A stretch of 64,000 nt of DNA from a phage, in sequence record OZ335964.1; one strand, written 5' to 3'. Shown here piece by piece: positions 5,887 to 63,254 of the stretch (position 1 is the stretch's first letter; every line of letters starts with the position of its first letter). The notes below the pieces were generated by a model. That model saw only the letters and a list, made by a program, of their open reading frames with translations. It did no database searches and was not told the DNA's origin. Both the position numbers and the translations under genes were made by a program.

Positions 5887-5922
5887 TTGATACTCCTTAG
5901 TAGTTCGTTTCGGTATGTGTGC

Positions 5923-5951
5923 ATTATAGGGGATCGATGATCCCCTGTCAA
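5923..5951 (-). promoter_or_regulatory. sigma70-type early promoter cassette
   Basis: Minus strand: TTGACA - 17 nt palindromic spacer GGGGATCATCGATCCCC - TATAAT, then conserved leader CCGAAACGAACT and RBS. Confidence 0.6.
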
Positions 5952-5958
5952 CAACTTT

Positions 5959-6477: not shown

Positions 6478-6478
6478 G

Positions 6479-8050: not shown

Positions 8051-8298
8051 GCTGCCCCCATTGGTTTGATAGTAACAGAATCTAAAAGACCTTTGTTAGC
8101 CAGTTCGCGGCAAGTTTTCAGATCCGTAACTTCCCAGCCAGCCGCAATCAGGTTATCAATCAGGCTGTTAGCAACTTCTTCGCTCATGAAAGAGCACTGT
8201 TTGCCGATGGTGTAGCGTACACGCTGTAATTTCAGTTTACGGAAGCCTTTAACGTTCAGGTCTTTAGCGATTTTCTTTGCGGTTTCGATGTTAGCCAT
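8047..8298 (-). CDS. hypothetical small early protein
   Basis: 83 aa; promoter cassette and RBS upstream; stop overlaps HNH start. Confidence 0.5.
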   Translation of the reverse strand: MANIETAKKIAKDLNVKGFRKLKLQRVRYTIGKQCSFMSEEVANSLIDNLIAAGWEVTDLKTCRELANKGLLDSVTIKPMGAA

Positions 8299-8338
8299 TG
8301 TTTGATTCTCCTAAGTGGTATCTCGTCTTGATGTTTGT

Positions 8339-8368
8339 ATTGTAGGGGATCTCCCGATCCCCTGTCAA
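8339..8368 (-). promoter_or_regulatory. sigma70-type early promoter cassette
   Basis: TTGACA - 18 nt palindromic spacer GGGGATCGGGAGATCCCC - TACAAT on minus strand. Confidence 0.55.
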
Positions 8369-8381
8369 CAACTTTTTTAGA

Positions 8382-8855
8382 TTATTTGCACCAAATTCGA
8401 ATTATTTCGTCTCGTTCAAATTTCTGCCAGATTACTCGGTCACCCGCTGCCATGATACTGACAAATCCAGTTGTGTTTCCTGTGTACTTGCTTTTAGTCT
8501 CGGCATCATATTCAAAGAATGGTGCTTTAAGATCGCTAAACTCATCTTTTCCCACAAACTTCATAACATGACGATGCGCGTAATATTCGCTTCTTAGTGT
8601 TGTTGTGATAGTTCCGTCATTATTTGATTTCAGATGTAATTCTGCATCTTCATAAAGACTTGCATCTCGTTGTTTACTTTCAATACCGTCGTTATATGTT
8701 GATTTCGTTGCACTCCAACATTGATAAGTTTTATCAACATTTTCGATCTTTTCCTGTGTCATATCAAAAAGCGGTGCAACCTTTTTCTTAGCCGCGTGTG
8801 CTACGTTGGTCATGGACAGTGCTGCAACAACCACAATAGCAATAATCTTCTTCAT
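8382..8855 (-). CDS. secreted/periplasmic protein, unknown function
   Basis: 157 aa; N-terminal signal peptide MKKIIAIVVVAALSMTNVAHA. Confidence 0.6.
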   Translation of the reverse strand: MKKIIAIVVVAALSMTNVAHAAKKKVAPLFDMTQEKIENVDKTYQCWSATKSTYNDGIESKQRDASLYEDAELHLKSNNDGTITTTLRSEYYAHRHVMKFVGKDEFSDLKAPFFEYDAETKSKYTGNTTGFVSIMAAGDRVIWQKFERDEIIRIWCK

Positions 8856-8885
8856 AGTATTCTCCTTTTGTTTTGTGTTGGGAGT

Positions 8886-8914
8886 ATCTTAGCGACACTC
8901 CCGTTATTTTTCAA
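8886..8914 (-). promoter_or_regulatory. early promoter cassette (variant)
   Basis: TTGAAA - 17 nt - TAAGAT on minus strand; -10 lies in loop of GGGAGT..ACTCCC inverted repeat. Confidence 0.45.
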
Positions 8915-8919
8915 ATCTT

Positions 8920-9201
8920 TTATTCGTGATTAGTTTCGATGTTATACATTTTGCACCAGTTCAGCCAATCGCCCAGATCTTGATAGTTGATGCTTTTATC
9001 TGCTGCCATCGTTTTGGTCTTGATACCCATATGTGCGTTATGAGTAAGCATTTTTACAGTGAACTCAATTTTATCGCCTTTAGCTTTAACATCAACCAGT
9101 TTGGTCCACTGGCTACCAGCGCCGCGAATGTTCATACCAACGATGTTTCCGATGTATGCTTCTTTGTTTTTCAGGATTTCGGTTGCTTTGATGAATTTCA
9201 T
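8920..9201 (-). CDS. hypothetical protein
   Basis: 93 aa ORF with RBS and promoter cassette upstream. Confidence 0.5.
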   Translation of the reverse strand: MKFIKATEILKNKEAYIGNIVGMNIRGAGSQWTKLVDVKAKGDKIEFTVKMLTHNAHMGIKTKTMAADKSINYQDLGDWLNWCKMYNIETNHE

Positions 9202-9234
9202 TTTTGATTCTCCAGTTCGTTTCGGTATGGGTGT

Positions 9235-9263
9235 ATTATGCTATGTTCTTACTTTGGTGTCAA
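9235..9263 (-). promoter_or_regulatory. sigma70-type early promoter cassette
   Basis: TTGACA - 17 nt - CATAAT on minus strand, followed by conserved leader and RBS. Confidence 0.5.
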
Positions 9264-9270
9264 CAACTTT

Positions 9271-9540
9271 TTAGATATTTTCAGAAATAAATTTTAAAAC
9301 TTGACGTAAATGTTTCTCATCTTTGATAGTCGCCGGAAGTTCTTCTTTTACTTCCTGTGCAAGATAGATATTTCCGTTCCAAGTGAAAGATCCGTCTTCG
9401 TTTACGCGATAGCTGAACATCCACTCGCAATCATTTTCGATTTCATATACACACAGAAGGGTGTAATCGTTAAAGCTATTGATTTCAAGGTCGAAGCCGT
9501 GACGTTTTGCAAAGTTGGTAGTGGTTTTAGTCAGTGCCAT
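9271..9540 (-). CDS. hypothetical protein
   Basis: 89 aa; shares near-identical leader/RBS with the 8047..8298 gene. Confidence 0.5.
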   Translation of the reverse strand: MALTKTTTNFAKRHGFDLEINSFNDYTLLCVYEIENDCEWMFSYRVNEDGSFTWNGNIYLAQEVKEELPATIKDEKHLRQVLKFISENI

Positions 9541-9580
9541 TGTTTGATTCTCCTAAGTGGTATCTCGTTTCGATGGGTGT

Positions 9581-9609
9581 ATTATGCTATACACAGGATC
9601 TGGTGTCAA
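9581..9609 (-). promoter_or_regulatory. sigma70-type early promoter cassette
   Basis: TTGACA - 17 nt - CATAAT on minus strand. Confidence 0.5.
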
Positions 9610-9633
9610 TGCCTTTTTTAAAAATTTTGGCAA

Positions 9634-9659
9634 TAAAAAAGCCGACACTAAGGTCGGCT
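9634..9659 (-). terminator. rho-independent terminator
   Basis: GCCGAC-ACTAAG-GTCGGC hairpin followed on minus strand by T-run. Confidence 0.6.
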
Positions 9660-9666
9660 AATAAAA

Positions 9667-9975
9667 TCAACGAGATAGATAATCGTTTTGCGCGATCTGG
9701 TCGGCGTATGCTGGTGTTATGTCAATCGCCAACACTTTAACGCGTGCTTTCTTGCGACCTGGGTTTTCTCGTAACCAGTGCTCATGACCGTGCACATTTT
9801 TATATTTTGATGCGGTTTCGAAGGTACGGATCGGACCTGGATAATCTGCGTAAAGGATCTCTAGGTCTTCGGTGATGTAAAAATATACATCATAATTACT
9901 GTTCTCTAGTTTAAGCAGAGAATTGCGAAATTGTGGTAAATTCTCGCGGGTAAATTCAACTACAAGATTTTTCAT
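9667..9975 (-). CDS. HxHW/AVDV paralogue family member 1
   Basis: 102 aa from MKNLVVEF (RBS GAGGA upstream); track ORF's 49-aa extension runs through a terminator hairpin; motifs YFYITEDLEI, HGHEHW, VLAIDI. Confidence 0.55.
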   Translation of the reverse strand: MKNLVVEFTRENLPQFRNSLLKLENSNYDVYFYITEDLEILYADYPGPIRTFETASKYKNVHGHEHWLRENPGRKKARVKVLAIDITPAYADQIAQNDYLSR

Positions 9976-9997
9976 AGTGATATCCTCATTCAGATAG

Positions 9998-10022
9998 ATT
10001 AAAAGGGGCTTAATGCCCCCTA
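9998..10022 (-). terminator. rho-independent terminator
   Basis: AGGGGC-TTAAT-GCCCCT hairpin with minus-strand T-run. Confidence 0.55.
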
Positions 10023-10024
10023 TA

Positions 10025-10312
10025 TTAAAACAGTCCTTCCTGTACACCGTAGTAGAGTTCATCGCTGATAATTTCATTAATGCGACGGTGTGCATATTCC
10101 TGATTTGCGAAGTTGTCAGCAAGTTCTACTTTAGTTTCGCCGTCATGAGTCCATTTAGTGATAACTTTACCATCTGCAAATTTGAAGTTGAACTCTTTAG
10201 CTACCGCATCGCGTACCAGACATGCAAACTTGTTGTTGCGGATTGCATTATCGGTTTCGTGTGCAGCGTGAGCAAATTTGTTAACTTTCAGAGTGATAGT
10301 AATGTATGCCAT
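10025..10312 (-). CDS. hypothetical protein
   Basis: 95 aa ORF with cassette promoter and RBS. Confidence 0.5.
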   Translation of the reverse strand: MAYITITLKVNKFAHAAHETDNAIRNNKFACLVRDAVAKEFNFKFADGKVITKWTHDGETKVELADNFANQEYAHRRINEIISDELYYGVQEGLF

Positions 10313-10358
10313 AATTTGATTCTCCTAGTTAGAAAGTGTATCTCGTTTCGATGGGTGT

Positions 10359-10387
10359 ATTATGCTATACACCCGATCCGGTGTCAA
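10359..10387 (-). promoter_or_regulatory. sigma70-type early promoter cassette
   Basis: TTGACA - 17 nt - CATAAT on minus strand. Confidence 0.5.
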
Positions 10388-10394
10388 CAACTTT

Positions 10395-10688
10395 TTATAA
10401 AATAATTTTTTGATATTTTTCTATGATGTTCGTGTAATTCACATCAACCGCTATCACCGTTGCTTCGAATCCACCGTTTAGCCAATGGCTATGGTCATGA
10501 TCGTGAAAGAAACCAAGACCAGTGCGAAGACCTTCTTTATATTCGGCGCGTACATTTAGAGAATCGTCGATAAACAGATAAAACCATGAATTTTTACTAG
10601 GATTGATGATACAACCTTTCAGATTAGGGAGAATATCACGACTAAGAATAAACTTATCACCTACTTTGAACATAATATTAGTCCTCAC
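10395..10688 (-). CDS. HxHW/AVDV paralogue family member 2
   Basis: 97 aa; FYLFIDDSLNV, HDHDHSHW, VIAVDV. Confidence 0.55.
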   Translation of the reverse strand: MRTNIMFKVGDKFILSRDILPNLKGCIINPSKNSWFYLFIDDSLNVRAEYKEGLRTGLGFFHDHDHSHWLNGGFEATVIAVDVNYTNIIEKYQKIIL

Positions 10689-10998
10689 TTATAAGGTCAA
10701 ACCAATTGTTTTTCGCATAATGCTTAATGCGTGCTTGATCTGCTTCCGCTGGTGATAGATTCCATGCAACCACTACAACTTCTGACGCATCGTCATCCGT
10801 TTCTGATACCCAATGATTGTGATTCATACAGTTATTTGCGATCGAGTGAGCAAATGATTTCATCACTGGAGACGTATAATCATAGTAACGGATTTTCAGA
10901 TTTTCATCAACGTACAAATAGATCGTATAAGGTTTATATTCAGTAACCAGTAACAGACAGTTACGCAATTCTGGGAAAATATTTTTAGTTAATTTCAT
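10678..10998 (-). CDS. HxHW/AVDV paralogue family member 3
   Basis: 106 aa; IYLYVDENLKI, NHNHW, VVVVAW; N-terminus similar to member 1. Confidence 0.55.
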   Translation of the reverse strand: MKLTKNIFPELRNCLLLVTEYKPYTIYLYVDENLKIRYYDYTSPVMKSFAHSIANNCMNHNHWVSETDDDASEVVVVAWNLSPAEADQARIKHYAKNNWFDLISED

Positions 10999-11200
10999 AT
11001 TCTAGTTCTCCGTAATATACGGTAATCCATTTTTCTTCATACTTTGTATCTTTCCAACACACAATCCCGTTTACTGTGCAATCTTTGGAATTGACGAATG
11101 ATTCATATTGTTCTGCATCTTCCATCATTGCATGAGCGGTCTTTTCATCGAATATATCGCAGATCGCTTTATATGCTCGATAATCTTTAAATTTGCTCAT
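10985..11200 (-). CDS. hypothetical small protein, tandem duplicate A
   Basis: Starts MSKFKDYRAYK (track ORF has 4 extra codons); paralogue of adjacent 11203..11412 (MSKFKDYKAY...MMEDA). Confidence 0.5.
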   Translation of the reverse strand: MSKFKDYRAYKAICDIFDEKTAHAMMEDAEQYESFVNSKDCTVNGIVCWKDTKYEEKWITVYYGELEYEIN

Positions 11201-11202
11201 AA

Positions 11203-11412
11203 TTAAGACCACTCAAGAGTTTTTGAAAACACATCTATCCATTGTTGAGTATATGCGGTTTCTTTCCATGATACAATACCAGTCGAATAATGGTTTTTGT
11301 TTCCAGAAAAGGACGGGCATTTTGATGCATCTTCCATCATCTTTTCGGCGAACTCCGCGTCATATACCCGCAGGATCTGTTGATATGCTTTATAATCTTT
11401 AAATTTGCTCAT
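11203..11412 (-). CDS. hypothetical small protein, tandem duplicate B
   Basis: 69 aa; paralogue of 10985..11200. Confidence 0.5.
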   Translation of the reverse strand: MSKFKDYKAYQQILRVYDAEFAEKMMEDASKCPSFSGNKNHYSTGIVSWKETAYTQQWIDVFSKTLEWS

Positions 11413-33748: not shown

Positions 33749-36700
33749 ATGGCAGATTTATTAAATCAACATTTTAAAGCCACATTTGGCTTTGATGCTG
33801 GTAACGAAAAAGTCGTTAATGTAGCACTTGCAGATAAGAACACTCTCACTGATGCCGTTAACGTCGAATTTTTCAATTACCATAACGGTATTACGCAGTA
33901 TGACACAACTCGCGGTTATGATCAATACGGTACTGCAATCTATCAAAACCGTCCTTACTATGCAAAAGAAGATATCGCAAAACCAGCCGGAGAATTTGAT
34001 CCGACTAAATGGCAAGCACTGCGTACTGATCCACGTTGGGATTACATTGCAGCGACGTCCGGCGATACTCCCTTAAAGTCCGGTGATTATATCGCGGCGG
34101 ATTGCCAATTTGCAAACTTGACTTTCTCTATGCCTAACAAACCAGCCGAGGGAGATACTATAACAGTAAAAGATATCGGTGGCAAGTGTGGCGTAAACGA
34201 ATTATCGTTCCTTAGTTCCGGTCATGAGTTCTATCATAACGGAAACGTGTATAATCGCAAGTGGTATTGCACTACCCCTTATTCTATGGTGTATTTCATC
34301 TTTGCTCGTAACCGTTGGCATGTCTATCAGACTGGAACGGAGCCGCGCGGGGTATATGCACAACCAGCGATCGATCCTATCCAGATGCAGAACGGCGATC
34401 AGATATTCCGTCGCAGTGCGTTAGGTGAAATCAGTCTCGTGTTGCCTAAATTCGCTAATAATGGTGATGTGGTTTATACCACGGATCTGGATGGTCTGAC
34501 AGCAACCAACCACGTTACGATCAAGACTCATGAAGGAGCGCCGGATCATTCAATTGGCGCGGCTGGCGTGAAAGAGATTGTTGGTAAACGTAGCGGTCAT
34601 GGTGCATTCATCTTTGATATTGCAGAAAACTTATGGCGTGTCTGGGATGGCGACCAGTCTGTTCGTTTAAATCCGATTGTATCGGATACCCGTTTATCTC
34701 CGAATAGCTATGTTGCTGTATTTGGTGACAAAGATGTTACTCTGACTCTTCCTAGCAATGTAGAAATTGGTGACCGTATTCAGGTATCTATGCAGTATAT
34801 GCACGGAAACCAGAATTGCAAAATCGTAACTGCTGACGCAGATACAAAAATTCTTATGCAAAAGAATATGTTACAATTCCCTAAACGCAGTGAATACCCA
34901 TTCAACGGCGTTAATACATGGGGCGAAGTAACAGAATTATCATTCAATGCAGAGAAAGATTATGTTCCTTATCTGGAGTTCTCTTATACAGAAGGTGATG
35001 ACGGTAAGAAACACTGGTTGATTGCACATGCTCACCCGATGGTTGAACGCGTCGATCCTAAGCGTAAAGCGCGTGTAGGTGTTATTGCACTGGCTACTCA
35101 GGAAGAAACCAATAAAAACCATGAAGATAATCCTAACGATGAAGTAGCAGTTACCCCAAAAATGCTGGCTAACAAAACCGCAACCGAAACACGACGCGGT
35201 ATTGCTCGCATTGCTACTCAGGCGGAAACTCATCAAAATACTGGTTCCAACTTCCTCGATGATGTTATTGTTACGCCTAAAAAGCTGAATAACTGCGTTG
35301 CTACCGAAGAACGACGCGGGGTACTGGAAATCGCTACCCAGAATGAAACTAACGAAGGCTTAGACGATACCCGCGCTATTACTCCTAAGAAATTAGAAGA
35401 ACGTCGCGCTAGCGAAACTCTGGCAGGGATCGCGGAAATTGTAACTAATGGCGGTAAAGCTGCAACCGTTCGCGGTCAAACTGGCACTGGCATTTATGAT
35501 ATTAATGACCATGCTAAGATTGTTACCCCGCATAACCTGAATGAAGTTAAAGCTACCGAAACGTCTCGCGGTGTGGGTTATCTGGCAACTGATGCAGAAG
35601 TGCAAGGAGCAACGGAAACAACGCCACAAGATGCATTATTCATCACTACCCGTACTTTAACTAAGCGCACAGCAACAGAAACACGCACCGGGATCGCGGA
35701 GATTGCAACTCAGGAAGAAACCAACTTAGGGCAAAGTGATAACCATATTGTTACGCCTAAAAAGCTGCATACTCGCCGTGCTACTGAAACACTTCACGGT
35801 TTGGCTGAAATTGCCACACAAGACGAGTTTGACGCAGGACGCGATGATGCTCGCATTTCTACCCCGTTGAAGATTAAAACTTTCTTTGAACGTGCACAAC
35901 GTCTGAAAGTAGATCCGACTCAAGGGCTTAATCTTGAGGGTAATTTGTGGGATGGTATCACGATTCGCGGTTTGGATGCAAATGAAACCACTAAAGGTGT
36001 TGCTAAAGTTGCTACCCAGCAATTAACCGATGAAGGTCAAGATGATACTACCATTATCACGCCGAAAAAGCTACATGCTAAAAAGGCAACAGAAGATAAA
36101 GAAGGTATTATTCGAGTTGCTACAGAAGAAGAGGCTAAAGGTGGTGATTTAGGTAATGTTGCAATCACTCCTAAAACCTTTAAACTGGTTGTTCAGGATG
36201 CAGAAGACTGGAAAGCTACCGAAGGACGACGCGGATTCCTGAAAGTATCAACCAAAGAAAACTGTTTCGTTGGTGACAATTTACAGGGTTCTACTCAAGC
36301 ACTTGAACAATACCAGCATGAAGGGATTGCCGTAACTCCACGCGGTTTAAACTATGCTCTTGATAATTTCTTACCGAAAATGGCAACCGCTCAGAATAGT
36401 TTGAAATTAGGCAACGTAGAGGCCGCTAAATGGGCGCGTAGAGACGTAGATCAGGTTATTGAGTCCAACTATACCTTTAATAAAAAAGTCACTGTAAAAG
36501 GCGAATTAGAGGGATTAAAATCTGGATCGTTTGAAACTCTTTATATAACCAAAAATTCAACAGAAGAGGCGAGTACAGGGAATCTTGTTTTAGGTCTTCG
36601 TGGACAGAATGGTCATACCGGAATTGCACTGCATGGAACAACCGGAGACGTTGAGAACTCATGGGCTATGCTGGTAGGTGGCACTGGAACGAATCAAATC

Positions 36701-37480
36701 ACCAGTCCAACGGCAATTGCTTTTGGTGGAATTAATGATGTTGGTTATATTGACCATTATGCTTTTGCAATTGAACGTAATGGTGATGTTGCAGCATATC
36801 AGGATTTTATCGCAGGTCGTAACCTGATGGCTAAATCAGGTGGTCTTTACATCGGTGATCATGAAAATGCGGCAATGACTTACGCTTCCGGTGTTCTTAA
36901 TATTGGACACGGTAAAGTAAACTTTAAGGCTGGTTATCAGGAATTGACCACAGAGATCGCAGGACAGAAATATCAAATTGTTCATGCAGGAAACGCTGAC
37001 GAAGTTCTTAACCGTCAATTTGTTAAGAATGCTGGTGATACGATGACCGGAAAGCTGATTATGGACAATGCCGCAATTGTTTCTGTTAAACATGAAGCAA
37101 CGGCAGCAACCGCACCAGCCATCGGTAATATCGGCTTCTGGAATATGCGCGTGGCAACACAGAATATTGCAGACACCTACCCAGAAAAGAAAAATGGTAC
37201 ATTGATGCAATGGGGTACTGATGAAAACGGCCTTACCCAAATCTGGTCGCCTGATGGTACTCATAAGCATTATATCCGTTCCGGTACAGATGGTCAATGG
37301 ACCGCATGGGGCGAAATTTACACCAAACAGAACAAGCCTACTGCTCAGGAAATCGGGGCAGTGGTTGCCGAAGGTGGTTTGATGAACTCTATGACGGTGC
37401 GTGACTGGATCAAGGTTGGTAATGTTAAAATCATCGCCAATAATCTGACTCGTACCGTAGATTTTATCTGGGAAGACTAA
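33749..37480 (+). CDS. 34: long tail fibre proximal subunit gp34
   Basis: 1243 aa (T4 gp34 1289 aa); first of four + strand late genes; internal ~40-aa repeats. Confidence 0.75.
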   Translation: MADLLNQHFKATFGFDAGNEKVVNVALADKNTLTDAVNVEFFNYHNGITQYDTTRGYDQYGTAIYQNRPYYAKEDIAKPAGEFDPTKWQALRTDPRWDYIAATSGDTPLKSGDYIAADCQFANLTFSMPNKPAEGDTITVKDIGGKCGVNELSFLSSGHEFYHNGNVYNRKWYCTTPYSMVYFIFARNRWHVYQTGTEPRGVYAQPAIDPIQMQNGDQIFRRSALGEISLVLPKFANNGDVVYTTDLDGLTATNHVTIKTHEGAPDHSIGAAGVKEIVGKRSGHGAFIFDIAENLWRVWDGDQSVRLNPIVSDTRLSPNSYVAVFGDKDVTLTLPSNVEIGDRIQVSMQYMHGNQNCKIVTADADTKILMQKNMLQFPKRSEYPFNGVNTWGEVTELSFNAEKDYVPYLEFSYTEGDDGKKHWLIAHAHPMVERVDPKRKARVGVIALATQEETNKNHEDNPNDEVAVTPKMLANKTATETRRGIARIATQAETHQNTGSNFLDDVIVTPKKLNNCVATEERRGVLEIATQNETNEGLDDTRAITPKKLEERRASETLAGIAEIVTNGGKAATVRGQTGTGIYDINDHAKIVTPHNLNEVKATETSRGVGYLATDAEVQGATETTPQDALFITTRTLTKRTATETRTGIAEIATQEETNLGQSDNHIVTPKKLHTRRATETLHGLAEIATQDEFDAGRDDARISTPLKIKTFFERAQRLKVDPTQGLNLEGNLWDGITIRGLDANETTKGVAKVATQQLTDEGQDDTTIITPKKLHAKKATEDKEGIIRVATEEEAKGGDLGNVAITPKTFKLVVQDAEDWKATEGRRGFLKVSTKENCFVGDNLQGSTQALEQYQHEGIAVTPRGLNYALDNFLPKMATAQNSLKLGNVEAAKWARRDVDQVIESNYTFNKKVTVKGELEGLKSGSFETLYITKNSTEEASTGNLVLGLRGQNGHTGIALHGTTGDVENSWAMLVGGTGTNQITSPTAIAFGGINDVGYIDHYAFAIERNGDVAAYQDFIAGRNLMAKSGGLYIGDHENAAMTYASGVLNIGHGKVNFKAGYQELTTEIAGQKYQIVHAGNADEVLNRQFVKNAGDTMTGKLIMDNAAIVSVKHEATAATAPAIGNIGFWNMRVATQNIADTYPEKKNGTLMQWGTDENGLTQIWSPDGTHKHYIRSGTDGQWTAWGEIYTKQNKPTAQEIGAVVAEGGLMNSMTVRDWIKVGNVKIIANNLTRTVDFIWED
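35040..36250 (+). repeat. tandem coding repeats within gene 34
   Basis: About ten ~40-aa units of form ATETxRG(I/V)AxIATQxE...ITPKKL (RRGIARIATQAETHQN, RRGVLEIATQNETNEG, RTGIAEIATQEETNLG, LHGLAEIATQDEF...). Confidence 0.6.
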
Positions 37481-37515: not shown

Positions 37516-38655
37516 ATGACACAAGAGATAGAATTACGCAATACTGGAATTAAGTTTGCGCATTTCGACGAAGACTCCGCGACATTTACAAGCATTTCAG
37601 AAAACAACTCTGTGATGTATAAGCTGGAAGTGCGCGGATCTAATGCGGATTCTTCCAAACCAGCAAGGATTAGATTTAATGGAGTGGAGATCGTCGGGAC
37701 TGGCTATGAGACTGGCCTAAACTTTAAAGTTCTTACTCCAACTGGACAATTGCACGAAGAAAAGGTATTCTATGGTCGTGGTGCTGTATTGGCAATGCGT
37801 GATTATCTTTCTTTACTGAAAGGGGATTATATTATCGCAATGGCATCACATGGAGAACTATTTGCAGATGTTGTAAGTGATGGCATATTTGCTAAGTTAG
37901 GATCTGTATCATTCCCAAATCACATTTTGTTACAGCAAATGCCTCGTGTGTCCTATGCTGCAATTTATTCTACTAAAATGGGTAAAATTGTGTGCGAAGG
38001 GATGCAAGCAACGCACGGAGAAGGTCAAGATTCGTCTATACAAATTGAGAAAGTTTATGATACTATAGACGATCTTGCAATTACAGGAACACCACAACGA
38101 TTTTTAGATTATCCGGTCGAGTATGTTAGCGAAGATGCCGAACATTTCGAGCTAATACAATGGCCTCATGATGAGATCAGCGCACCACTTGAAGATTTTA
38201 ACATCAAGACAGGTGACAAACTATCAATATCTTTTGAATTGTTCCGTGATAGTGCCGCAGCCGCAGCCAACGTAACAGCGCGATTCTTCCATAACTATTT
38301 TATGGAGGGTCAATATAAAACTGGCGTTCGTTATAATGCCAGCCAGAAAGATCAATGGGAAAAGTTCGAAGCTGTTTATACTGTACCGGAAGGTGTCGAT
38401 AGTGTAGTAACTGGTTGTATCAGATATCCAACCAACTCCAATGAAGGTGTTGTTAAGGTTAGAAACATCCTGATCACTCCTATAAGTGGTGTCGTCAAAA
38501 CTACCGGACCTACTTCCTTTGGTGTTAACGGTATTAGAACAACTCACATTCAGGATAACGGTGATTTTACTAACCCTGTTATGAGTCTTCTTAAACTACC
38601 TAGAGACAATAAACATATCACATCCAACAACTTTAAAGAGTTCGATGTTGATTAA
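37516..38655 (+). CDS. 35: long tail fibre hinge protein gp35
   Basis: 379 aa (T4 gp35 372 aa); position 34-35-36-37. Confidence 0.6.
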   Translation: MTQEIELRNTGIKFAHFDEDSATFTSISENNSVMYKLEVRGSNADSSKPARIRFNGVEIVGTGYETGLNFKVLTPTGQLHEEKVFYGRGAVLAMRDYLSLLKGDYIIAMASHGELFADVVSDGIFAKLGSVSFPNHILLQQMPRVSYAAIYSTKMGKIVCEGMQATHGEGQDSSIQIEKVYDTIDDLAITGTPQRFLDYPVEYVSEDAEHFELIQWPHDEISAPLEDFNIKTGDKLSISFELFRDSAAAAANVTARFFHNYFMEGQYKTGVRYNASQKDQWEKFEAVYTVPEGVDSVVTGCIRYPTNSNEGVVKVRNILITPISGVVKTTGPTSFGVNGIRTTHIQDNGDFTNPVMSLLKLPRDNKHITSNNFKEFDVD

Positions 38656-38816: not shown

Positions 38817-38824
38817 TATAAATA
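38817..38824 (+). promoter_or_regulatory. T4-type late promoter
   Basis: Exact TATAAATA ~34 nt upstream of gene 36 ATG. Confidence 0.6.
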
Positions 38825-38857: not shown

Positions 38858-40348
38858 ATGGCAGATTTGAAACATGGATCTACTGTAGGTGGATCTCCCA
38901 TTTGGACGCAAGGAAACTTGACGATCCAGCCAGCGGGTGATCAGCTTTTCTACAAAGGTCATAAAATCTATACCGCTTTTGATAAACCTTCGGCTGCCGA
39001 TTTTGATGCTGTTAGTGCATCCGAAGGTGGTACATTTCAGAAACTGGTCCATTTTGAGGAAGGTTTAAGCGTAGGTAGCGCATCGGCGGGTGAAACCAAA
39101 AAGAATGGTATCTTTAAAGGCCAGAGTGATGCTGCTAATTTTGACGGTGTAAGCTGGGGTTTGCATTCATGGAAGTCAATCGGCTTTGTTAATGCCCGTG
39201 ATGGCGTTATCATGGCGTATATTGACACCACAACGGGCGAATTTAAGTCTAAAGGGACTATCGAAGGGACAACCATTAAAGACACAGGTCAACGCGTCTA
39301 TAGCCCTGTTAATAAACCAACGAATAATGATTTAGATTTGGTGTCTCGTCGCGGTGATACCCTCACAGGAACATATAATTTAAACACTGTCACTGTTAAA
39401 CTATCGGTTGATTCGAAATTAATTGCAAGGGAACGTGATTTAATTAATTTTGATGCGACTAAGATCTATTATGGTAACGTTCTTGATACGTTGGTCTTCC
39501 GAAGTAAAGATGAGCCTACCATTTTTGTTAATGGCAAAGAAGGTCGTTTTTATCACACCAACAATAAACCAACTAAAGCCGATGTTGGACTAGGCAATGT
39601 CACCAATGATGCACAGGTTAAACGTGCTGGTGATATTATGGAAGGCAACTTGCAAGCGCCTAGAATGCTGGCGACAAACGATCCTGCTGGTCCTAATGAA
39701 TTGGTTCGTTTGAGCTACTTTGAGAAAAAATCAATGGTAGCAAATCCAACCATCATTGGAAACGTTGATTGGAACACTCTTATTAATCGCGGTATCTATC
39801 GTGTGGAAAATGCTGGATCAGGTACTAATAAACCGTCTGATAGCTATTATAACGGCGTTTTGATGGTATATCGCCCAGAAGATGCGGTCGGTACTCGTCG
39901 AATTGTTCAGGTGTATTATCCTGAATCTATTGACCATCCGATGTGCTGGCGTTCTTGTTCTAATGAATCGTGGACTGCATGGAACTATGTAGATCACCGT
40001 AAATTAGCCGATATTCGCTATGTTAACGTAACTGGCGATACCATGACAGGACCGTTAACTGTTCCGGCTGCAAATGGAGTTAGAACGGCTAAAACTAACT
40101 ATAATGGGGATAATTGCTATGCGGCTTTAAGTGGTGCTGATGGCACTGCTATGATTCACCGTATTAGTGATATTAAAGGGACCGAAAAGCTGGGGATCAC
40201 CCACGACTCAAAGGTCGTGTTTTTCCGTTCTAGAAACAATACTCAAACCGTAGACCGCTATCAGCTTTATCATGAAGGTAATAAACCAACTCCGGCTGAT
40301 GTTGGCGCAGTTCCACTTAATGCGGTGATTGATTTTGGTACTTTCTAA
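38858..40348 (+). CDS. 36: long tail fibre distal subunit gp36
   Basis: 496 aa; N-terminus MADL as in genes 34 and 37; repeated NKPT(K/P)ADVG motif; synteny. Confidence 0.6.
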   Translation: MADLKHGSTVGGSPIWTQGNLTIQPAGDQLFYKGHKIYTAFDKPSAADFDAVSASEGGTFQKLVHFEEGLSVGSASAGETKKNGIFKGQSDAANFDGVSWGLHSWKSIGFVNARDGVIMAYIDTTTGEFKSKGTIEGTTIKDTGQRVYSPVNKPTNNDLDLVSRRGDTLTGTYNLNTVTVKLSVDSKLIARERDLINFDATKIYYGNVLDTLVFRSKDEPTIFVNGKEGRFYHTNNKPTKADVGLGNVTNDAQVKRAGDIMEGNLQAPRMLATNDPAGPNELVRLSYFEKKSMVANPTIIGNVDWNTLINRGIYRVENAGSGTNKPSDSYYNGVLMVYRPEDAVGTRRIVQVYYPESIDHPMCWRSCSNESWTAWNYVDHRKLADIRYVNVTGDTMTGPLTVPAANGVRTAKTNYNGDNCYAALSGADGTAMIHRISDIKGTEKLGITHDSKVVFFRSRNNTQTVDRYQLYHEGNKPTPADVGAVPLNAVIDFGTF

Positions 40349-40418: not shown

Positions 40419-43049
40419 ATGGCAGATTTAAGCAGAATCCAATTTAAACGCACTAGCACTAAAGGCCGTCGACCTGATGCTGGTACGATGAATCCGGGGG
40501 AATTGGCAATCAATCTTGCGGATCAATATCTTCTTACTAAAAATGATTCCGGTGCTATTATCAATTTAAGTTGTCCTCCGGTTTATGACCGTGATGTTAC
40601 AATGGCGGGTAAAGTTAAAGGAAATAATTATATTTTAAGTAAAACCGCTAACTATCTGGAAGATCAGACAGCGCGAGATCTTAACTACTTTGGTGCTTTC
40701 CGTACCAATGGTCTTGATGGTTTTCTCGAACTCACGCTAAACGTTCCTCATTCTTCTGGTGTTCAGCATGGTCGAGGATTTACTTTCCAGTATGGACACA
40801 CAGGAAACCGTGTAGAAACTTATGGTTATAATAAAGAAGGACAAAAAGCATTTAGTTATAAAATGTATCACGAAGGTGATAAACCAACTCCAGGAGAATT
40901 GAACGTCTATAGCAAACAAGAAATTGACCGTATGTTTGTGAAAAACGTTAAAATGTCTGTTCCTTCCGGTGACGCAACTCGTGGTTACTTTAAGATCGCG
41001 ACCGCAATGATTCCGCAGAATGGTCGAATGGCATTTTTACGAATTTACGGCGGAAACGGATATAATGTTAACTCCTACGACCAGGTTGATTTCCTTGAAA
41101 TTGTGATTCGCGGTGGTAATAATAACCCTAAAGGTGTTAGTATTGCTGCATATCGTCGAAATTCTTTGAACGTACATGAGGTATTTGCAATTAATACTTC
41201 CGGTGATAACTATGACATTTATGTTAACTATGGTCGTTACACCGATAACGTTATTGTCGAGTTTGGAAAAACTGTTGATGTTGCATTGACTGTTCATGAT
41301 GTTCCTGAATTTTCTGCGACTAAACCAGCAACCGGAACTAAATTTGATGCTCGTGTTATTACGATGTTCAACACCGAAAACAAAGCCGGAACGTTGATGT
41401 TTGATAATAACTCACAAGCAACCTATGATATTGTGAGCCTTAATAACGTACCAGACAACAATAAAAAATATATGCGTAAATTCCGCAGTCGTGCGGCGGA
41501 AACAATATGGCATGAAACTGTTCAAGGTGATGTGTATCGTTTGGCTACTGGTTCTACCGACCAAAAAGAAGTATTAAAAATTGTTGGTAGTGATGGTTTA
41601 TTTGTCGATAGACTTCATCTGCAAGGCAATAACGCGATTCGTATGTGGCGTCCTACTGGTCGTAGTAACTATTTTGAATATATGGATCAGCGAGATGGTG
41701 CTAATAAGCGTCAAGGTTGGTTTGGCTTTGGTTCTATAGATACTAACGATTTTCAATGGTATAGTGACGAAGGTAAAAACTTTGTTAAGCTAGAAGCAAG
41801 TGGTCAAGTATCTTTAAGTACTGGTGCGACCAAAATTGTATACACTAATGGTCAATATGTAGCTGCCAATTCTGATGCATACCGTATGATCTTTGGTAAT
41901 TACGGTGCATTCTGGCGTAATGACGGCACTAAAGTTTATCTTCTTTCTACGGCTGAAAATGATAAATTTGGTGGCTGGAATACCTACCGACCGTTTATCT
42001 ATAATTTAGTATCTGGAAACGTTGATTTGGGTGGTGATACCACAGCCTCCGCATTGACCTTAGAAGGTGCAAGCAAAACCGCTCGATTTGGTGGTCATGT
42101 TTATACAGGCGGTAACTTACATAATACAGGTCAGTATATAACTATGGAGGCCGGACTTGCTGGTCAATCAATGGATTATATTCGTTTTAACCATTGGGGT
42201 AGTAGCAGCACCGGACGAAATAACATCTTGTATGTTGAAGACAGCAAAGGTCGTCATTTTTCTACCGAACGTTCTTCCACAGGAGCACTTAAAGCTGACT
42301 TTTTAGGTGAACTCGAAGTTGGTGGTAAGCTGACATGGGGTAAGGGTACAGCTAAATCCTCGTTTAACTTACGAGTGTGGGGCAATGATTCCCGTAAACA
42401 AGTGTTTGAATGTGCGGACGAAAGCGGTTGGCATTTCTATACCCAGCGTGCGGGTGGTCCTGGAACTAATGTAATTGAGTTTAACGTAAACGGTAGGATT
42501 ACTGTTCCTGAATTATATGTTGGTACTGCTGCATCAATATCTAAAATCAATGGTGCTTTTGGTGTCGGTACTACTAATGGATTAGGTGGTAGTTCAATTA
42601 CTCTGGGTGATAGTGATACTGGCTTTAAGCAAAATGGCGATGGCAACCTTGATGTTTATGCTAACAACGTTGCAGTAATGCGTTTTACTTCTGGTGCGAT
42701 TACCGCAAACAAACAATTGAACGTATCTGGTCGTGTTAACCCGTCTGATTATGGAAACTTTGATGGTCGTTATATCAAAAAGACCAGAGGATGGACTAGA
42801 ATATGGACGGGTACACTAGGTGGGAATACTCAGACCGGAACATTGCCTCAAGACCTTCGCTACCGTAACGTGTGGATCGTAATGGCTGATGGATTTAAAA
42901 ACTTCTTCCGTTTTGGTGATGACGGTACTTATTATCTGTCTGGTTATGGAGGTTGGATTAAAATGCAACTTCACTCTAGTGGTAAGATCTTTAAAAATAT
43001 TCAAGACCATTATTGCGTTCCTCGCGAAATTTGGGTTGAAAACGAATAA
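40419..43049 (+). CDS. 37: long tail fibre distal subunit / receptor-binding protein gp37
   Basis: 876 aa; N-terminus MADL; Gly-rich C-terminal region; immediately upstream of holin t with no gene 38-sized ORF between. Confidence 0.65.
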   Translation: MADLSRIQFKRTSTKGRRPDAGTMNPGELAINLADQYLLTKNDSGAIINLSCPPVYDRDVTMAGKVKGNNYILSKTANYLEDQTARDLNYFGAFRTNGLDGFLELTLNVPHSSGVQHGRGFTFQYGHTGNRVETYGYNKEGQKAFSYKMYHEGDKPTPGELNVYSKQEIDRMFVKNVKMSVPSGDATRGYFKIATAMIPQNGRMAFLRIYGGNGYNVNSYDQVDFLEIVIRGGNNNPKGVSIAAYRRNSLNVHEVFAINTSGDNYDIYVNYGRYTDNVIVEFGKTVDVALTVHDVPEFSATKPATGTKFDARVITMFNTENKAGTLMFDNNSQATYDIVSLNNVPDNNKKYMRKFRSRAAETIWHETVQGDVYRLATGSTDQKEVLKIVGSDGLFVDRLHLQGNNAIRMWRPTGRSNYFEYMDQRDGANKRQGWFGFGSIDTNDFQWYSDEGKNFVKLEASGQVSLSTGATKIVYTNGQYVAANSDAYRMIFGNYGAFWRNDGTKVYLLSTAENDKFGGWNTYRPFIYNLVSGNVDLGGDTTASALTLEGASKTARFGGHVYTGGNLHNTGQYITMEAGLAGQSMDYIRFNHWGSSSTGRNNILYVEDSKGRHFSTERSSTGALKADFLGELEVGGKLTWGKGTAKSSFNLRVWGNDSRKQVFECADESGWHFYTQRAGGPGTNVIEFNVNGRITVPELYVGTAASISKINGAFGVGTTNGLGGSSITLGDSDTGFKQNGDGNLDVYANNVAVMRFTSGAITANKQLNVSGRVNPSDYGNFDGRYIKKTRGWTRIWTGTLGGNTQTGTLPQDLRYRNVWIVMADGFKNFFRFGDDGTYYLSGYGGWIKMQLHSSGKIFKNIQDHYCVPREIWVENE

Positions 43050-43091
43050 GGAAAACTCCCAGGGAAGGGAAACTACTAAGGAGAAACGGCT

Positions 43092-43331
43092 ATGGTCTAT
43101 AATATCGTCATTGGTGCTTTGTCTAATTTCGGAATGAAATTATTGTCAAAGTTAATTAGTGAAAAGATGCTCACTAAAATTTTCTTCTACTGCGCTCGTC
43201 GTCTTGCGGCGTATACCAATACGCCAATTGATGATCGTTTTGTGGAAGAACTTTATAAGGAGTTTAATAAAGATCAGTCAGAAGATAGCAACGAGCAAAA
43301 TAAAAATAGTGATAGTCAAGTACCTAAATAA
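43092..43331 (+). CDS. hypothetical small protein
   Basis: 79 aa; hydrophobic N-terminus, acidic C-terminus; occupies the position of T4 gene 38 but is too small and shows no adhesin-like Gly-rich motifs. Confidence 0.4.
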   Translation: MVYNIVIGALSNFGMKLLSKLISEKMLTKIFFYCARRLAAYTNTPIDDRFVEELYKEFNKDQSEDSNEQNKNSDSQVPK

Positions 43332-43364
43332 GAGTACACTGTCATAGTTATTTTAGGGCATTAT

Positions 43365-44021
43365 ATGCAAGTTTCTGAAAAAGAGAAAGACTTTGCTATC
43401 TCAAATGTCCTGCGCGCTATTTTCACAACTAAAAGCACGGAGTTGCTCGTACTTCGTGTTTTTGCTGCCGTCGTGTTGTCCATATTAGCATTTGTCGTTT
43501 ATAGCAAAAACGAGTTATTTGCCTTGTATAAAGAGACTCGTTATGAGACTTATGCTCACGTTCTCCAGGTAGAGAAAGACCGCAATTTTGATAATGCAGC
43601 ACAGGAGCAGTTACAGATAGTTCATGTGTCGGCTGATGCCGATTTTTCTGCTGTTTTTAGTTTTCGTCCGAAAAACCTAAATTATTTTGTTGATTTGGTG
43701 GCATATGAAGGAAAGCTACCGCATACAATCGATGAAAAAAATTTAGGCGGATTTCCTATCAATAAAACGAGTGAAGAATATCGTAGGCATCTTTTAGGTA
43801 AATCCTATTTTACCGATAAAGATTTCCAGTATATTCCGTCGAGGGAGAAAAAATTAGAGAATATCGATATAGGGTTTATGTATTCTTGTCCTATATTCAA
43901 TCTCGATAATGTCTATTCTGGTAGTATCGCCATTGCATGGAAGAATAAACCGGATATTGACATTGAGAATTTAGATACTCTTTGCAATCAATCTGCCAGA
44001 ATCCTCGGAAGGATTAGATAA
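43365..44021 (+). CDS. t: holin T
   Basis: 218 aa (T4 T 218 aa); LEQLQIVHVSADADFSAVFSFRPKNLNYFVDLVAYEGKLP and MYSCPIFNLDNVYSG match T4 holin almost residue-for-residue. Confidence 0.85.
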   Translation: MQVSEKEKDFAISNVLRAIFTTKSTELLVLRVFAAVVLSILAFVVYSKNELFALYKETRYETYAHVLQVEKDRNFDNAAQEQLQIVHVSADADFSAVFSFRPKNLNYFVDLVAYEGKLPHTIDEKNLGGFPINKTSEEYRRHLLGKSYFTDKDFQYIPSREKKLENIDIGFMYSCPIFNLDNVYSGSIAIAWKNKPDIDIENLDTLCNQSARILGRIR

Positions 44022-44025: not shown

Positions 44026-44058
44026 AAGGGGAAGCCTTTCGGCCTCCCCTTCTTTTTT
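44026..44058 (+). terminator. rho-independent terminator after t
   Basis: GGGGAAGCC-TTTC-GGCCTCCCC hairpin followed by TTCTTTTTTATT. Confidence 0.65.
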
Positions 44059-45357: not shown

Positions 45358-45549
45358 TCACTTATCGTTAAGAAGTTCTAAAACTTTCTGTCGTACTTTG
45401 TCAATATTAGTTGATTCAAAAACTGTACGGTATCCCCAGCTTTGACCGTATGAGCGCGAGCAATCCCCATATCCCCATTGTTCAACCTGATAGTATTCAA
45501 GGAATGGATGTTGCCGAACTATGATACCATCACGATTAAAAATTACCAT
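45358..45549 (-). CDS. hypothetical small protein
   Basis: 63 aa ORF. Confidence 0.4.
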   Translation of the reverse strand: MVIFNRDGIIVRQHPFLEYYQVEQWGYGDCSRSYGQSWGYRTVFESTNIDKVRQKVLELLNDK

Positions 45550-45572
45550 AATATAATCCTCAAGTCAACAAC

Positions 45573-45854
45573 TTATTTTCGGTTGTACTTCTGCCACTTT
45601 CGGTAATACTGCTTGTAAACCTGTTTTGCGTTTTCACCATCTTTACTATACATGTTATCTACCATCAAGTCAATAAGACCTTCCGGTGTCTGGTAGTTCC
45701 CCGCTCGAATAAGTTCTTTAATTAAAGTGTCCTGATGATCTTTGTATACTACGTTAATGATGGTCTTTTCTGCTTTCTTCGTCCCGATCATCCGGTGATT
45801 AGCTTTCATCGCATCCCACCAATCTTTTGTGATCTTCATGTTATTGAATTGCAT
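45573..45854 (-). CDS. hypothetical protein
   Basis: 93 aa basic protein. Confidence 0.45.
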   Translation of the reverse strand: MQFNNMKITKDWWDAMKANHRMIGTKKAEKTIINVVYKDHQDTLIKELIRAGNYQTPEGLIDLMVDNMYSKDGENAKQVYKQYYRKWQKYNRK

Positions 45855-45865
45855 AATTTAACCTC

Positions 45866-46624
45866 TTACTTGCACACGTATTGATCTACATCAATTGCGC
45901 CACCGAATGTAGGATGACGTTTTTCAAATCGAATAGTTCCGTCGTTTGGTTCGAAAACGGAGTATTCATATAGATCTTTCTTGCCAACATTCTTATAAAA
46001 CCCGCCTTTAGTCATAACGGTTTCTTGTACGTTTGCTTTGTGTACGTTGTATTCGTCAATGTATACAAAATCAACCATCTTCCCATTTTTAATGGTTACT
46101 TTAAGATCTCCTGGTTGGTTTCCATATTTTGCATACAGTGGAGCTTCTTTAATTTTGGTGGAAATTCCATCTTTCATACTCCACTCATAACGAACGGTGC
46201 ATTGATAGGTAAAAGTTTCGACCTTCGGTTCTTCCACCACTTTTTCTTCCTGTTTCGGTTGTTCTTCGTCAACCTTCACGGAAGTCTCTGAATCGCTTTC
46301 TGACGCGGTTTCTTCTTTAGGTAATACATTCATCAAGTTTTGGATTTGAGCGTTGTATACAGCCTCCAGTGGCTGAATCTGCCCGATATTGATCATTGTA
46401 TCACGAACAGTTTTATTCCAGTTGCGTTGCTCTTGTTTCAGAGACGGATCAATCTTAACAGCCTTAACATATACTTCATGAAGTTTCGAATCCAGTGCGG
46501 AGATTGACTCATTAGCACAAATAAACTTCTCTGATTTGGTAGTGGCTTTAGCGCAATCAAAGGACGCAGCATTAGCACCGAAAGCAGTAGCAGAAAGAAC
46601 GATAGCAGCGATAATGTTTTTCAT
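45866..46624 (-). CDS. secreted protein with LprI/DUF1311-like N-terminal domain
   Basis: 252 aa from MKNIIAAIVLSATAFGANA (signal peptide); ASFDCAKATTKSEKFIC...LDSKL...QRNWNKTVRD pattern; track ORF's extension overlaps the promoter. Confidence 0.5.
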   Translation of the reverse strand: MKNIIAAIVLSATAFGANAASFDCAKATTKSEKFICANESISALDSKLHEVYVKAVKIDPSLKQEQRNWNKTVRDTMINIGQIQPLEAVYNAQIQNLMNVLPKEETASESDSETSVKVDEEQPKQEEKVVEEPKVETFTYQCTVRYEWSMKDGISTKIKEAPLYAKYGNQPGDLKVTIKNGKMVDFVYIDEYNVHKANVQETVMTKGGFYKNVGKKDLYEYSVFEPNDGTIRFEKRHPTFGGAIDVDQYVCK

Positions 46625-46658
46625 AATATATTCCTCAGTGTTTTGTCTTGATGGGAGT

Positions 46659-46687
46659 ATCTTACTACTCCCCTGTTCTGGTGTCAA
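46659..46687 (-). promoter_or_regulatory. early promoter cassette
   Basis: TTGACA - 17 nt - TAAGAT; -10 within GGGAGTA..TACTCCC hairpin. Confidence 0.5.
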
Positions 46688-62287: not shown

Positions 62288-62295
62288 TATAAATA
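62288..62295 (+). promoter_or_regulatory. T4-type late promoter
   Basis: Exact TATAAATA ~30 nt upstream of the + strand HNH gene ATG. Confidence 0.5.
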
Positions 62296-62324
62296 AGTTT
62301 GCTAGAACTAAAGGAGACCACAAA

Positions 62325-63254
62325 ATGAACTATAAACGTATTTATGATAACCTGATTGAACGTGCTAAGACTAGAACTATCGACGGATATACAGAAAAGC
62401 ATCACATCATACCACGTTGTATGAATGGAAGCGATGATGATAGCAATCTAGTTAGACTCACCCCAGAGGAACATTACATTGCTCACCTTCTGTTAGTTAA
62501 GATTTACCCAGATAACAGTAAATTGGTTTATGCTGCAAATATGATGTGCGTTTCTTCTGATTCACATAATGGAGAAAGACAGTCAAATAAACGTCATGGT
62601 TGGTTGCGTAGAAAAATGGCAGAGGCACATAGTAAAAGAATCCGCGATAGAATGGAGAACGATCCTGAATATAGAGCTAAGGTTTCGGAATGGGCTAGAA
62701 AAATGGGTAAAGCCATGAAAGGAGTTAAGCGAGGACCGGAATTTAGCAGAAAGTTGGCAGAAAGAAACAGAAATACCGTGATGAAAGAAGAAACTAAACG
62801 TAAAATCGGGGAAGCCAACAAAGGAAGGAAACGTACAGAAGAATATAAAAGAAAACATAGTGAGCGGTATAAGGGTGAAGGTAATCCGATGTATGGTAAA
62901 CGAGGAAAGGAACATCCGGCATATGGTACTAAACCGTGGAACAACCAAACATCATTTGTTGAGCAGAAAGCATGGTGGCGGTTCGCTGGCATGTTCTATG
63001 ACTGGTATCAGATGGATATTGACCGTGGGAAACATAAACGCCACGGTCATAAAAGAATGCTTGATGAATTGGGTTTTGTTGGTTGGCGAGAAAAAGAGCC
63101 AGCCGCAGCAAGACGATCAATTGAAATGTTTGCTAAAGGCTGGAATCCTTATGAAGACCAAGAATGGTTAGATTATATTAATACCCGCTTTCCAAACGAC
63201 GATAGTTTTCCGCGTTCTTCAACATATACAAAACAAACAAATCCTTTGCAGTAA
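62325..63254 (+). CDS. HNH homing endonuclease with NUMOD3-like repeats
   Basis: 309 aa; EKHHIIPRCMNGSDDDSNLVRLTPEEHYIAH (HNH) and repeated basic HSKRIRDRM / KRKIGEANKGRK / HSERYKGEGNPMYGKRGKEH motifs; only + strand gene in this block. Confidence 0.7.
   Translation: MNYKRIYDNLIERAKTRTIDGYTEKHHIIPRCMNGSDDDSNLVRLTPEEHYIAHLLLVKIYPDNSKLVYAANMMCVSSDSHNGERQSNKRHGWLRRKMAEAHSKRIRDRMENDPEYRAKVSEWARKMGKAMKGVKRGPEFSRKLAERNRNTVMKEETKRKIGEANKGRKRTEEYKRKHSERYKGEGNPMYGKRGKEHPAYGTKPWNNQTSFVEQKAWWRFAGMFYDWYQMDIDRGKHKRHGHKRMLDELGFVGWREKEPAAARRSIEMFAKGWNPYEDQEWLDYINTRFPNDDSFPRSSTYTKQTNPLQ

Follow-up and report, generated by a model that had tools for sequence, protein, structure and literature searches.

The late fibre and lysis genes

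The DNA considered here, a stretch of 64,000 nucleotides from record OZ335964.1 (hereafter the window), belongs to a new RB49-like phage of the genus Krischvirus, which shares 92-94% nucleotide identity with many members (RB49, JSE, Phi1, kaaroe, Cognac and others) and is identical to none. In RB49, the equivalent of this 64-kb window runs from about 110 kb to the end of the genome and continues through the first about 11 kb.

Between 33.7 and 44.1 kb, the plus strand carries genes in the order g34-g35-g36-g37-Dc5-t. Genes 34 (33749-37480), 35 (37516-38655) and 36 (38858-40348), all on the plus strand, were identified by matches to PHROG tail-fibre families and by synteny with RB49. The next gene, g37 (40419-43049, plus strand; phrog_1699, E 5e-100), encodes the distal subunit of the long tail fibre, a mosaic protein of 876 aa. 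It is followed by an open reading frame of 79 aa with an ATG start (43092-43331, plus strand; phrog_402, Pfam PF26925), the equivalent of RB49 Dc5, and by the T4-type holin gene t (43365-44021, plus strand; PF11031, Phage_holin_T, E 5e-61; phrog_860). The holin, of 218 aa, matches PF11031 over its full length, is 48% identical to T4 T and has one transmembrane domain (TMD), with a Kyte-Doolittle maximum of 2.86 at aa 27-45. The product of g36 has 496 aa in both the window and RB49 as compared to 221 aa in T4, which indicates that the distal half-fibre is differently built in Krischvirus.

Matches to the T4-type late promoter motif TATAAATA occur on the plus strand near this operon at 33713, before g34, and at 38817-38824, upstream of g36, the latter being the last plus-strand motif before the end of t. 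Since a scan of this strand found no late promoter motif between g36 and t, the genes g36-g37-Dc5-t would form one late transcription unit, and Dc5 is probably co-transcribed with g37 and t. A GC-rich hairpin, GGGGAAGCC-TTTC-GGCCTCCCC, followed by a T-run (44028-44058, given without a strand), was read by eye from the sequence and is absent from the consensus scan output; lying between convergent genes, it is likely the terminator of the late unit.

Two other reading frames of the window may be mentioned. An ORF of 309 aa on the plus strand (62288-63254), located amid early genes of the minus strand, has an HNH-like 'HHIIPR' motif, is preceded at 30 nt by a TATAAATA late-promoter motif and may encode a homing endonuclease. 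An ORF of 273 aa on the minus strand (45866-46687), whose RB49 counterpart RB49p262 has 252 aa, shows a signal-peptide-like N-terminus (MKNIIAAIVLSATAFGANAASFDC...) when read from an internal start, and its product may be a secreted protein or lipoprotein.

Gene 38 in the window and in the genus

The first-pass annotation of this DNA had pointed out that gene 38, which T4 has between 37 and t, is missing here, and this was borne out for both phages. T4 has g38 at that place, and between the end of g37 at 43049 and the start of t at 43365 the 79-aa ORF is the sole substantial reading frame of the window phage; an ORF of 62 aa overlaps it in another frame and is unsupported by any evidence. The whole window was searched by tblastn with the gp38 proteins of T4 (chaperone type) and of RB49 and FL04 (adhesin type), and the best match over the 64 kb had an E value of 0.76, with zero matches for RB49 gp38. 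No similarity to the C-terminus of T4 gp37 was found in the window either.

The displacement of g38 in Krischvirus has already been published (Trojet et al., PMC3157838) and was restated for five phages of the genus in a 2026 preprint (bioRxiv 10.64898/2026.04.02.716166). In RB49 (NC_005066), the gene occupies 45367-46143, some 100 kb away from g37, and its product carries the Pfam domains GP38 (PF05268) and Gp38_N (PF21721). RB49 gp38 is the experimentally supported receptor-binding protein (PMC3157838; PMC9569957), to which host-range mutations map (PMC9569957). The g38-less gap between g37 and t is thus a known trait of RB49-type members of the genus and adds nothing by itself; since the gene is encoded elsewhere, the gap alone does not imply that receptors are bound by gp37.

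A displaced-locus g38 is present in 44 Krischvirus records, and about fifteen others lack roughly 0.9 kb at that locus, including FL04, FL15, FL20, kvi, MIZ4/5 and UPWr_E1. The closest 25 relatives that have the g37 body type of the window all carry the displaced gene (25/25). The ancestor of the window phage almost certainly had a displaced g38, and the gene may persist in this phage, used or not, at a locus that lies outside the window.

Architecture of gp37 and the exchanged cassette

The body of gp37 is of the ordinary kind for the genus, with a Gp34_trimer domain (Pfam) at aa 419-528. Compared with the gp37 proteins of RB49 (979 aa) and kaaroe (920 aa), it is nearly identical for about 560-690 residues and fully divergent thereafter. 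At the nucleotide level, homology to kaaroe, the closest relative in this comparison, stops at 42104, whereas RB49 is still 71% matched up to 42493. From 43039 onward, 11 nt short of the g37 stop codon, the window is again homologous to RB49, kaaroe and FL04 alike. The segment lacking nucleotide homology to kaaroe (42105-43038, plus strand) is a swapped distal cassette, with a GC content of 0.41-0.435 as compared to 0.36-0.40 in its flanks.

In RB49 and kaaroe, gp37 has a Peptidase_S74 C-terminus that aligns with the chaperone region of Salmonella phage S16 gp37 (PDB 6F45), and according to the published model this chaperone is cleaved off, after which a gp38 monomer caps the fibre (PMC9569957). 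Neither a Pfam scan nor alignment with the RB49 and kaaroe proteins revealed a Peptidase_S74 domain in the gp37 of the window.

The distal part of the window gp37 is composed of three segments. A motif at aa 655-700 (GNDSRKQVFECADESGWHFYTQR...NVNG; 42381-42518, plus strand) is common to RB49 gp37, to aa 314-360 of T7/T3 gp17 and to T4 gp34 (PDB 4UXE), which makes it a plausible candidate for the 5' crossover site. It is followed at aa 701-783 by a beta-helical repeat segment (GDSDTGFKQNGDGNLDVYANN...NVSGRVNPSDYGNFDG; 42519-42767, plus strand) that is 50-72% identical to E. coli prophage (P2/Mu-type) tail fibres, and of which aa 721-775 resemble the last beta-helical part of S16 gp37 (6F45_A residues 22-78). 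The third segment, aa 784-876, is discussed below. The last 226 aa, used in a word-indexed search, brought up nothing but prophage fibres, which have the GDSDTGFKQNGDG repeat in common with gp37 and not the tip; the entry P0016 was dismissed. As a separate observation, the roughly 46-residue GNDSRKQVFECADESGWHFYTQR...NVNG motif could be a general recombination hotspot among fibre genes.

On the 3' side, the conserved junction with the intergenic region (43039-43091, plus strand), from which window, RB49, kaaroe and FL04 align onward, includes a strong Shine-Dalgarno sequence for Dc5 (AAGGAG, 43078-43083). To judge from these alignments, every fibre-tip cassette in Krischvirus has its 3' boundary in this stretch, and the DNA from an internal point of g37 to the junction before Dc5 is one swappable cassette. 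FL04 keeps the junction region downstream of its g38. In the same phage (L011, 4936-5000), a non-coding relic AAAAAGAATTAA of an RB49-type g37 end is also found downstream of g38; the resemblance of the ...GAAAACGAATAA end of the window gene to this relic suggests microhomology at the crossover.

A T7-type tip at the end of gp37

The last 93 residues of gp37 are homologous to the tip domain of the T7 tail fibre. Residues 784-876 (42768-43046, plus strand) match residues 462-553 of T7 gp17 (4A0T/4A0U, 7BOZ; E 3e-25 for 4A0T/7BOZ) through the final ...VENE, with 47% identity to T7 from end to end and about 50% to T3, and form a putative receptor-binding domain. A deep mutational scan of T7 gp17 has identified the positions that are intolerant to substitution, namely 11 core, five salt-bridge and four glycine positions (PMC8043750). 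In the window tip, the salt-bridge positions (5/5) and intolerant glycines (4/4) are identical to those of T7, as are 7/11 core positions, and the remaining 4/11 show conservative replacements (I/V, L/I, F/M and I/L), so that all 20 structure-critical positions are conserved or conservatively replaced (20/20). The positions that govern host specificity in T7, on the other hand, differ (N501D, D520Y, R542Y, S541H). Such intact structural positions combined with differing specificity positions would be expected if the tip folds and functions but has another specificity.

Structure prediction of the gp37 C-terminus had been proposed in the first-pass annotation as a check. An AF2 model based on a two-sequence alignment contained nine strands at a mean pLDDT of 54.6, where the T7 tip is an eight-stranded beta-sandwich, and when this low-confidence model was submitted to Foldseek, the only matches with E<=1e-3 were 4A0T/4A0U (top four; TM 0.62), a score that is in part derived from the sequence similarity itself. 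In T7 and T3, the tip domain binds host lipopolysaccharide as its first contact (LPS; PMC8043750). By analogy, the tip of the window phage probably binds the LPS core of its host, with a specificity different from that of T7 and T3. We consider it quite probable that the T7-type tip is the functional receptor-binding end of gp37.

The location of the domain, in the place of S74, might suggest that it is likewise a cleavable folding module that is removed from mature fibres. This seems very improbable, because the mature T7 fibre retains the domain (the chains of PDB 7BOZ/7EY9 reach residue 553) and no S74 signature exists in the window gp37.

A weightier alternative is that the phage is still of the ordinary RB49 type, with a displaced gp38 acting as the adhesin and the T7-like domain serving as an additional or secondary binding module, or being structurally tolerated. 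The presence of the displaced gene in all 25 relatives with this g37 body, together with the experimental support for RB49 gp38 as a receptor-binding protein (PMC9569957), speaks for it. However, capping by gp38 of the S16/RB49 type follows the removal of S74, which the window gp37 does not possess, and the end of this protein is already occupied by a complete tip of the folded type. Moreover, an uncultured T4-like phage (contig L058, below) has the same type of tip and no g38 at the canonical position. We therefore regard the ordinary arrangement as rather unlikely for this phage, and full independence of the fibre from gp38 as having slightly better than even odds.

Homologues of the tip in other phages

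When the tip was compared by tblastn with 50,697 phage records, 225 records gave matches, 100 of which were listed, the top 40 together with an evenly spaced 60. In these 100, identity did not exceed 53%; all were T7-like podophages not larger than 41 kb, and no Straboviridae occurred among them. Among 1.84 billion representative proteins, 57 were matched in a profile search. The closest of these, P0119 (71% identity), comes from an E. coli assembly, where its contig is siphovirus-like; the junction of the beta-helical segment into the tip is the same as in the window. Another match, P0120, was examined as a possible second gp37, since it has 873 aa and a T7-type tip, and was ruled out because it sits in a small siphovirus-like contig.

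One match did turn out to be a gp37. P0134 is encoded by the uncultured T4-like contig L058 (Logan SRR23814683), which has the gene order gp32-gp59-dsbA-rnh-g34-g35-g36-g37-t-asiA-...-motA and whose nearest match is formed by the Edwardsiella phages PEi20/26 (78% over 45%). In its fibre region (2441-11245), the C-terminus of gp37 is a T7-type tip (40% identity) without S74, and t comes 35 nt after g37, with neither a g38 nor a small ORF in between. The combination of a T4-type fibre with a T7-type tip and no adjacent g38, which was not found among the sequenced isolates searched, has thus arisen at least twice.

The T7-like C-terminus might also be an assembly chimera or a non-functional relic. 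An exact look-up of the gp37 in public assemblies gave no match, a scan of IMG/VR with the tip gave no close relatives, and the 100 listed matches (of 225) include no Straboviridae, all of which would fit such an explanation. Nevertheless, it is hardly credible. The reading frame is unbroken, all structure-critical positions of the tip are intact, the same junction into the tip is present in P0119 and the architecture recurs in L058. In addition, the tip is only 47-53% identical to that of any T7-like phage, which excludes a co-assembled known phage as its source, and the GC content of the tip and cassette is close to that of the phage genome, which argues against a chimeric assembly as well as against a very recent import from a T7-like phage. 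In the IMG/VR data, contig L014 was also inspected because of a Dc5 that is 99% identical, and was set aside, as its g37 end differs from that of the window.

Dc5, the small gene before the holin

The ORF before t has the name Dc5 in the RB49 annotation; the window protein matches phrog_402 with an E value of 5e-20 and has a precomputed assignment to Pfam PF26925; no NCBIfam match was found, and neither was any mention of PF26925 or phrog_402 in the literature. Identity of the protein is 90% or more in 59 phage records, in contrast to the hypervariable fibre tip encoded next to it. Dc5 is thus a genuine gene and not a chance ORF. The start codon is ATG in the window, kaaroe and FL04, and GTG in RB49 (L001, 11002-11241), which accounts for the two alternative Dc5 annotations, of 79 and 65 aa, in the RB49 record.

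The description of the ORF as having a hydrophobic N-terminus and an acidic tail proved accurate: the N-terminus is moderately hydrophobic (Kyte-Doolittle 19-residue maximum 1.31) and the tail acidic (DQSEDSNEQNKNSDSQVPK). In an alignment of the family, the N-terminal helix is moderately hydrophobic and has a conserved lysine, and is accompanied by an amphipathic helix, an invariant T-x-T-x-x-D-D and an acidic helix; the conserved motif F..E..FF..A..T.T..DD is present in the window protein. A low-confidence AF2 model also gave three helices. The hydrophobic segment of Dc5, with its maximum of 1.3 and the conserved lysine, makes a weak transmembrane helix; the Kyte-Doolittle maximum across the family is 1.3-2.1, and in two distant homologues there is a further, clearly hydrophobic segment at the N-terminus.

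The position of Dc5, where T4 has g38, suggests that it might functionally replace g38, either as a small adhesin or as a chaperone of the fibre tip. A similar option was raised by Trojet et al. in 2011 for small ORFs after g37 in other phages (PMC3157838), and a match of seven residues with T4 gp38, EELYKEF, could be taken as further support. This explanation is nonetheless most improbable. The protein has no similarity to Gp38_N, GP38 or Tfa; specifically, alignment with the N-terminal domain of gp38, which the first-pass annotation had named as the observation that would speak against its view, was absent, there being no Pfam match of this kind and no significant blastp match with the gp38 proteins of RB49, FL04 and L044. 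Furthermore, Dc5 coexists with g38 in FL04 (g37-g38-Dc5-t), where it cannot be a replacement, and with a Gp38_N protein in L044. It is also nearly invariant (at least 90% identical) beside three different fibre ends, which argues against a tip-specific chaperone or adhesin, and its homologues in other lineages adjoin lysis genes. The heptad is not conserved in the family, and the invariant residues T42, T44, D47 and D48 are missing from T4 gp38. No glycine-rich motifs were found in the ORF, which has three glycines in 79 aa.

The heptad itself (Dc5 residues 52-58, 43245-43265; T4 gp38 residues 117-123) was judged a coincidence, and a relation of Dc5 to T4 gp38 was rejected, as this 7-mer in an unconserved part of the family is all that is shared. 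A role as an analogue of T4 RIII was likewise set aside, no similarity being detected; a tblastn search for an RIII homologue in RB49 and the window was negative, but the same search missed gp31 and is too insensitive to count. In L044 (129-3533), a Felix-O1-like viral contig of the Ounavirinae, a Gp38_N protein of 160 aa is encoded between the tail fibre gene and the Dc5-like gene, so gp38-type adhesins occur outside Straboviridae. The order of fibre, adhesin, Dc5 and 'holin' on this contig is that of FL04.

The genomic surroundings of the homologues are more informative about function. In the window, Dc5 adjoins the holin gene t and is thus located in the lysis cassette. In Ounavirinae, a homologue lies between the tail fibre gene and a 'putative holin', a coiled-coil protein with a single TMD, the stop and start codons overlapping. 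In Vibrio-phage-like genomes, the homologue comes immediately after an endolysin gene, and on two other contigs it comes after the gene of a TMD-coiled-coil protein and directly before a Phage_lysozyme or Peptidase_M15 endolysin. A T7-like arrangement has a TMD-coiled-coil protein on one side of the homologue and the small terminase on the other, so that the homologue takes the position occupied in T7 by holin 17.5. The sole exception is formed by 7-11-like podophages, where the homologue resides inside the structural module and not beside lysis genes. The loci beside lysis genes are, apart from that of the window, at about 3992-4560 in L005/L006, 3480-4213 in L007, 499-1230 in L049, 1381-2420 in L050, 745-1666 in L052 and 2720-3507 in L051. 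In all, at least six phage lineages unrelated to each other have a phrog_402/PF26925 homologue beside a single-TMD coiled-coil holin-like protein or an endolysin. On the basis of this gene association, we put the chance that Dc5 acts in lysis control, as a holin partner, an antiholin or a small holin, at about even.

Proposed mechanism and implications

The reading that in our view best accounts for the locus as a whole, with a probability of roughly 60%, is that of an exchanged fibre tip that binds the receptor directly, without a gp38 cap, next to a Dc5 gene linked to lysis. The genes g34-g35-g36-g37-Dc5-t would constitute a late operon for long tail fibres and lysis in a new Krischvirus. 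In the usual RB49-type situation, gp37 ends in the self-cleaving intramolecular chaperone S74, and gp38, supplied from a gene about 100 kb away, caps the fibre. In the window phage, the distal roughly 180-300 residues of gp37 have been exchanged by recombination, with the crossover on the 5' side at the shared fibre motif inside the gene and on the 3' side at the conserved junction by the stop codon. The incoming end lacks S74 and is made up of a beta-helical segment of prophage type and, after it, a complete T7 gp17-type tip. The gp37 trimer would then present three tip domains and bind the receptor directly, with no need for cleavage or a gp38 cap. Dc5, a conserved late gene that accompanies the holin gene, would most likely have its function in lysis control.

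Since the T7-type tip has replaced the end that is processed by S74 and capped by gp38, we infer that receptor recognition by gp37 itself is likely in the window phage. The first-pass annotation had left a choice between recognition by the gp37 C-terminus and an adhesin encoded elsewhere. The first option is probably correct for the window phage, in which S74 is lost and a T7-type tip gained; the second holds for the genus, as illustrated by RB49 g38. A bolder version can be envisaged, in which the gp38 system has been abandoned altogether in favour of a self-folding, single-polypeptide fibre with a T7-type tip that reads the LPS core, and in which Dc5/PF26925 proteins are partners or regulators of single-TMD, T-like holins. 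As a whole, that version must be considered speculative and somewhat doubtful.

The new element is the T7-type C-terminus of gp37, which is a case of modular exchange of tail-fibre tips. At defined junctions, a complete receptor-binding domain has been exchanged between the fibres of podoviruses, the side fibres of siphoviruses and the long fibres of a T4-type myovirus. If the bolder version is correct, the T7-type tip represents a fourth tip solution for T4-type long fibres, with at least two origins (the window phage and L058). This has practical aspects. Receptor prediction for Straboviridae relies on gp38 or T4-type gp37 tips, and the window phage would be misclassified. No other phage receptor-binding domain is mapped as well as the T7 tip, for which a full deep mutational scan exists, and this knowledge could be transferred to a genus of broad host range that is relevant for therapy, and is of interest for fibre engineering. 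As for Dc5, it represents a widespread, unnamed family of small proteins whose linkage to holins and endolysins makes a role in lysis directly testable.

Comparison with known systems

RB49-type members of Krischvirus are the obvious reference. The window phage shares with them the genus, the g34-g35-g36-g37-Dc5-t order, the g37 body, the junction, Dc5 and t, whereas its gp37 lacks Peptidase_S74 and the S16-like cleavage region and has the T7-type tip instead. The locus of FL04 type (g37-g38-Dc5-t) has in common with the window Dc5 (100%), t and the junction; FL04 differs by a T2-like g37 with S74, and by a g38 that is at the canonical place and not at the displaced locus.

With the T7/T3 gp17 tip (4A0T, residues 465-553), homology extends over the whole domain, including the core, salt-bridge and glycine positions and the C-terminal VENE. 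In the window phage, however, the tip is mounted on the fibre of a T4-type contractile tail, to which it is connected by a prophage-type segment and not by the T7 pyramid domain, and the exterior-loop residues are different (N501D, D520Y, R542Y).

The gp37-gp38 system of Salmonella phage S16 and the T2-type phages (6F45) differs in that the window has no chaperone/cleavage region and no adjacent gp38. In T4, the receptor-binding site is carried by gp37 itself, as proposed here. The solution is nevertheless a different one, since T4 combines a gp37 needle tip with a Tfa-like gp38 chaperone, and neither the C-terminus of T4 gp37 nor T4 gp38 has a similar sequence in the window. A further parallel is L058, where g37 also has a T7-type tip and is followed by t without a g38, although this contig belongs to a distant lineage, has no Dc5 and possesses a short, T4-like g36.
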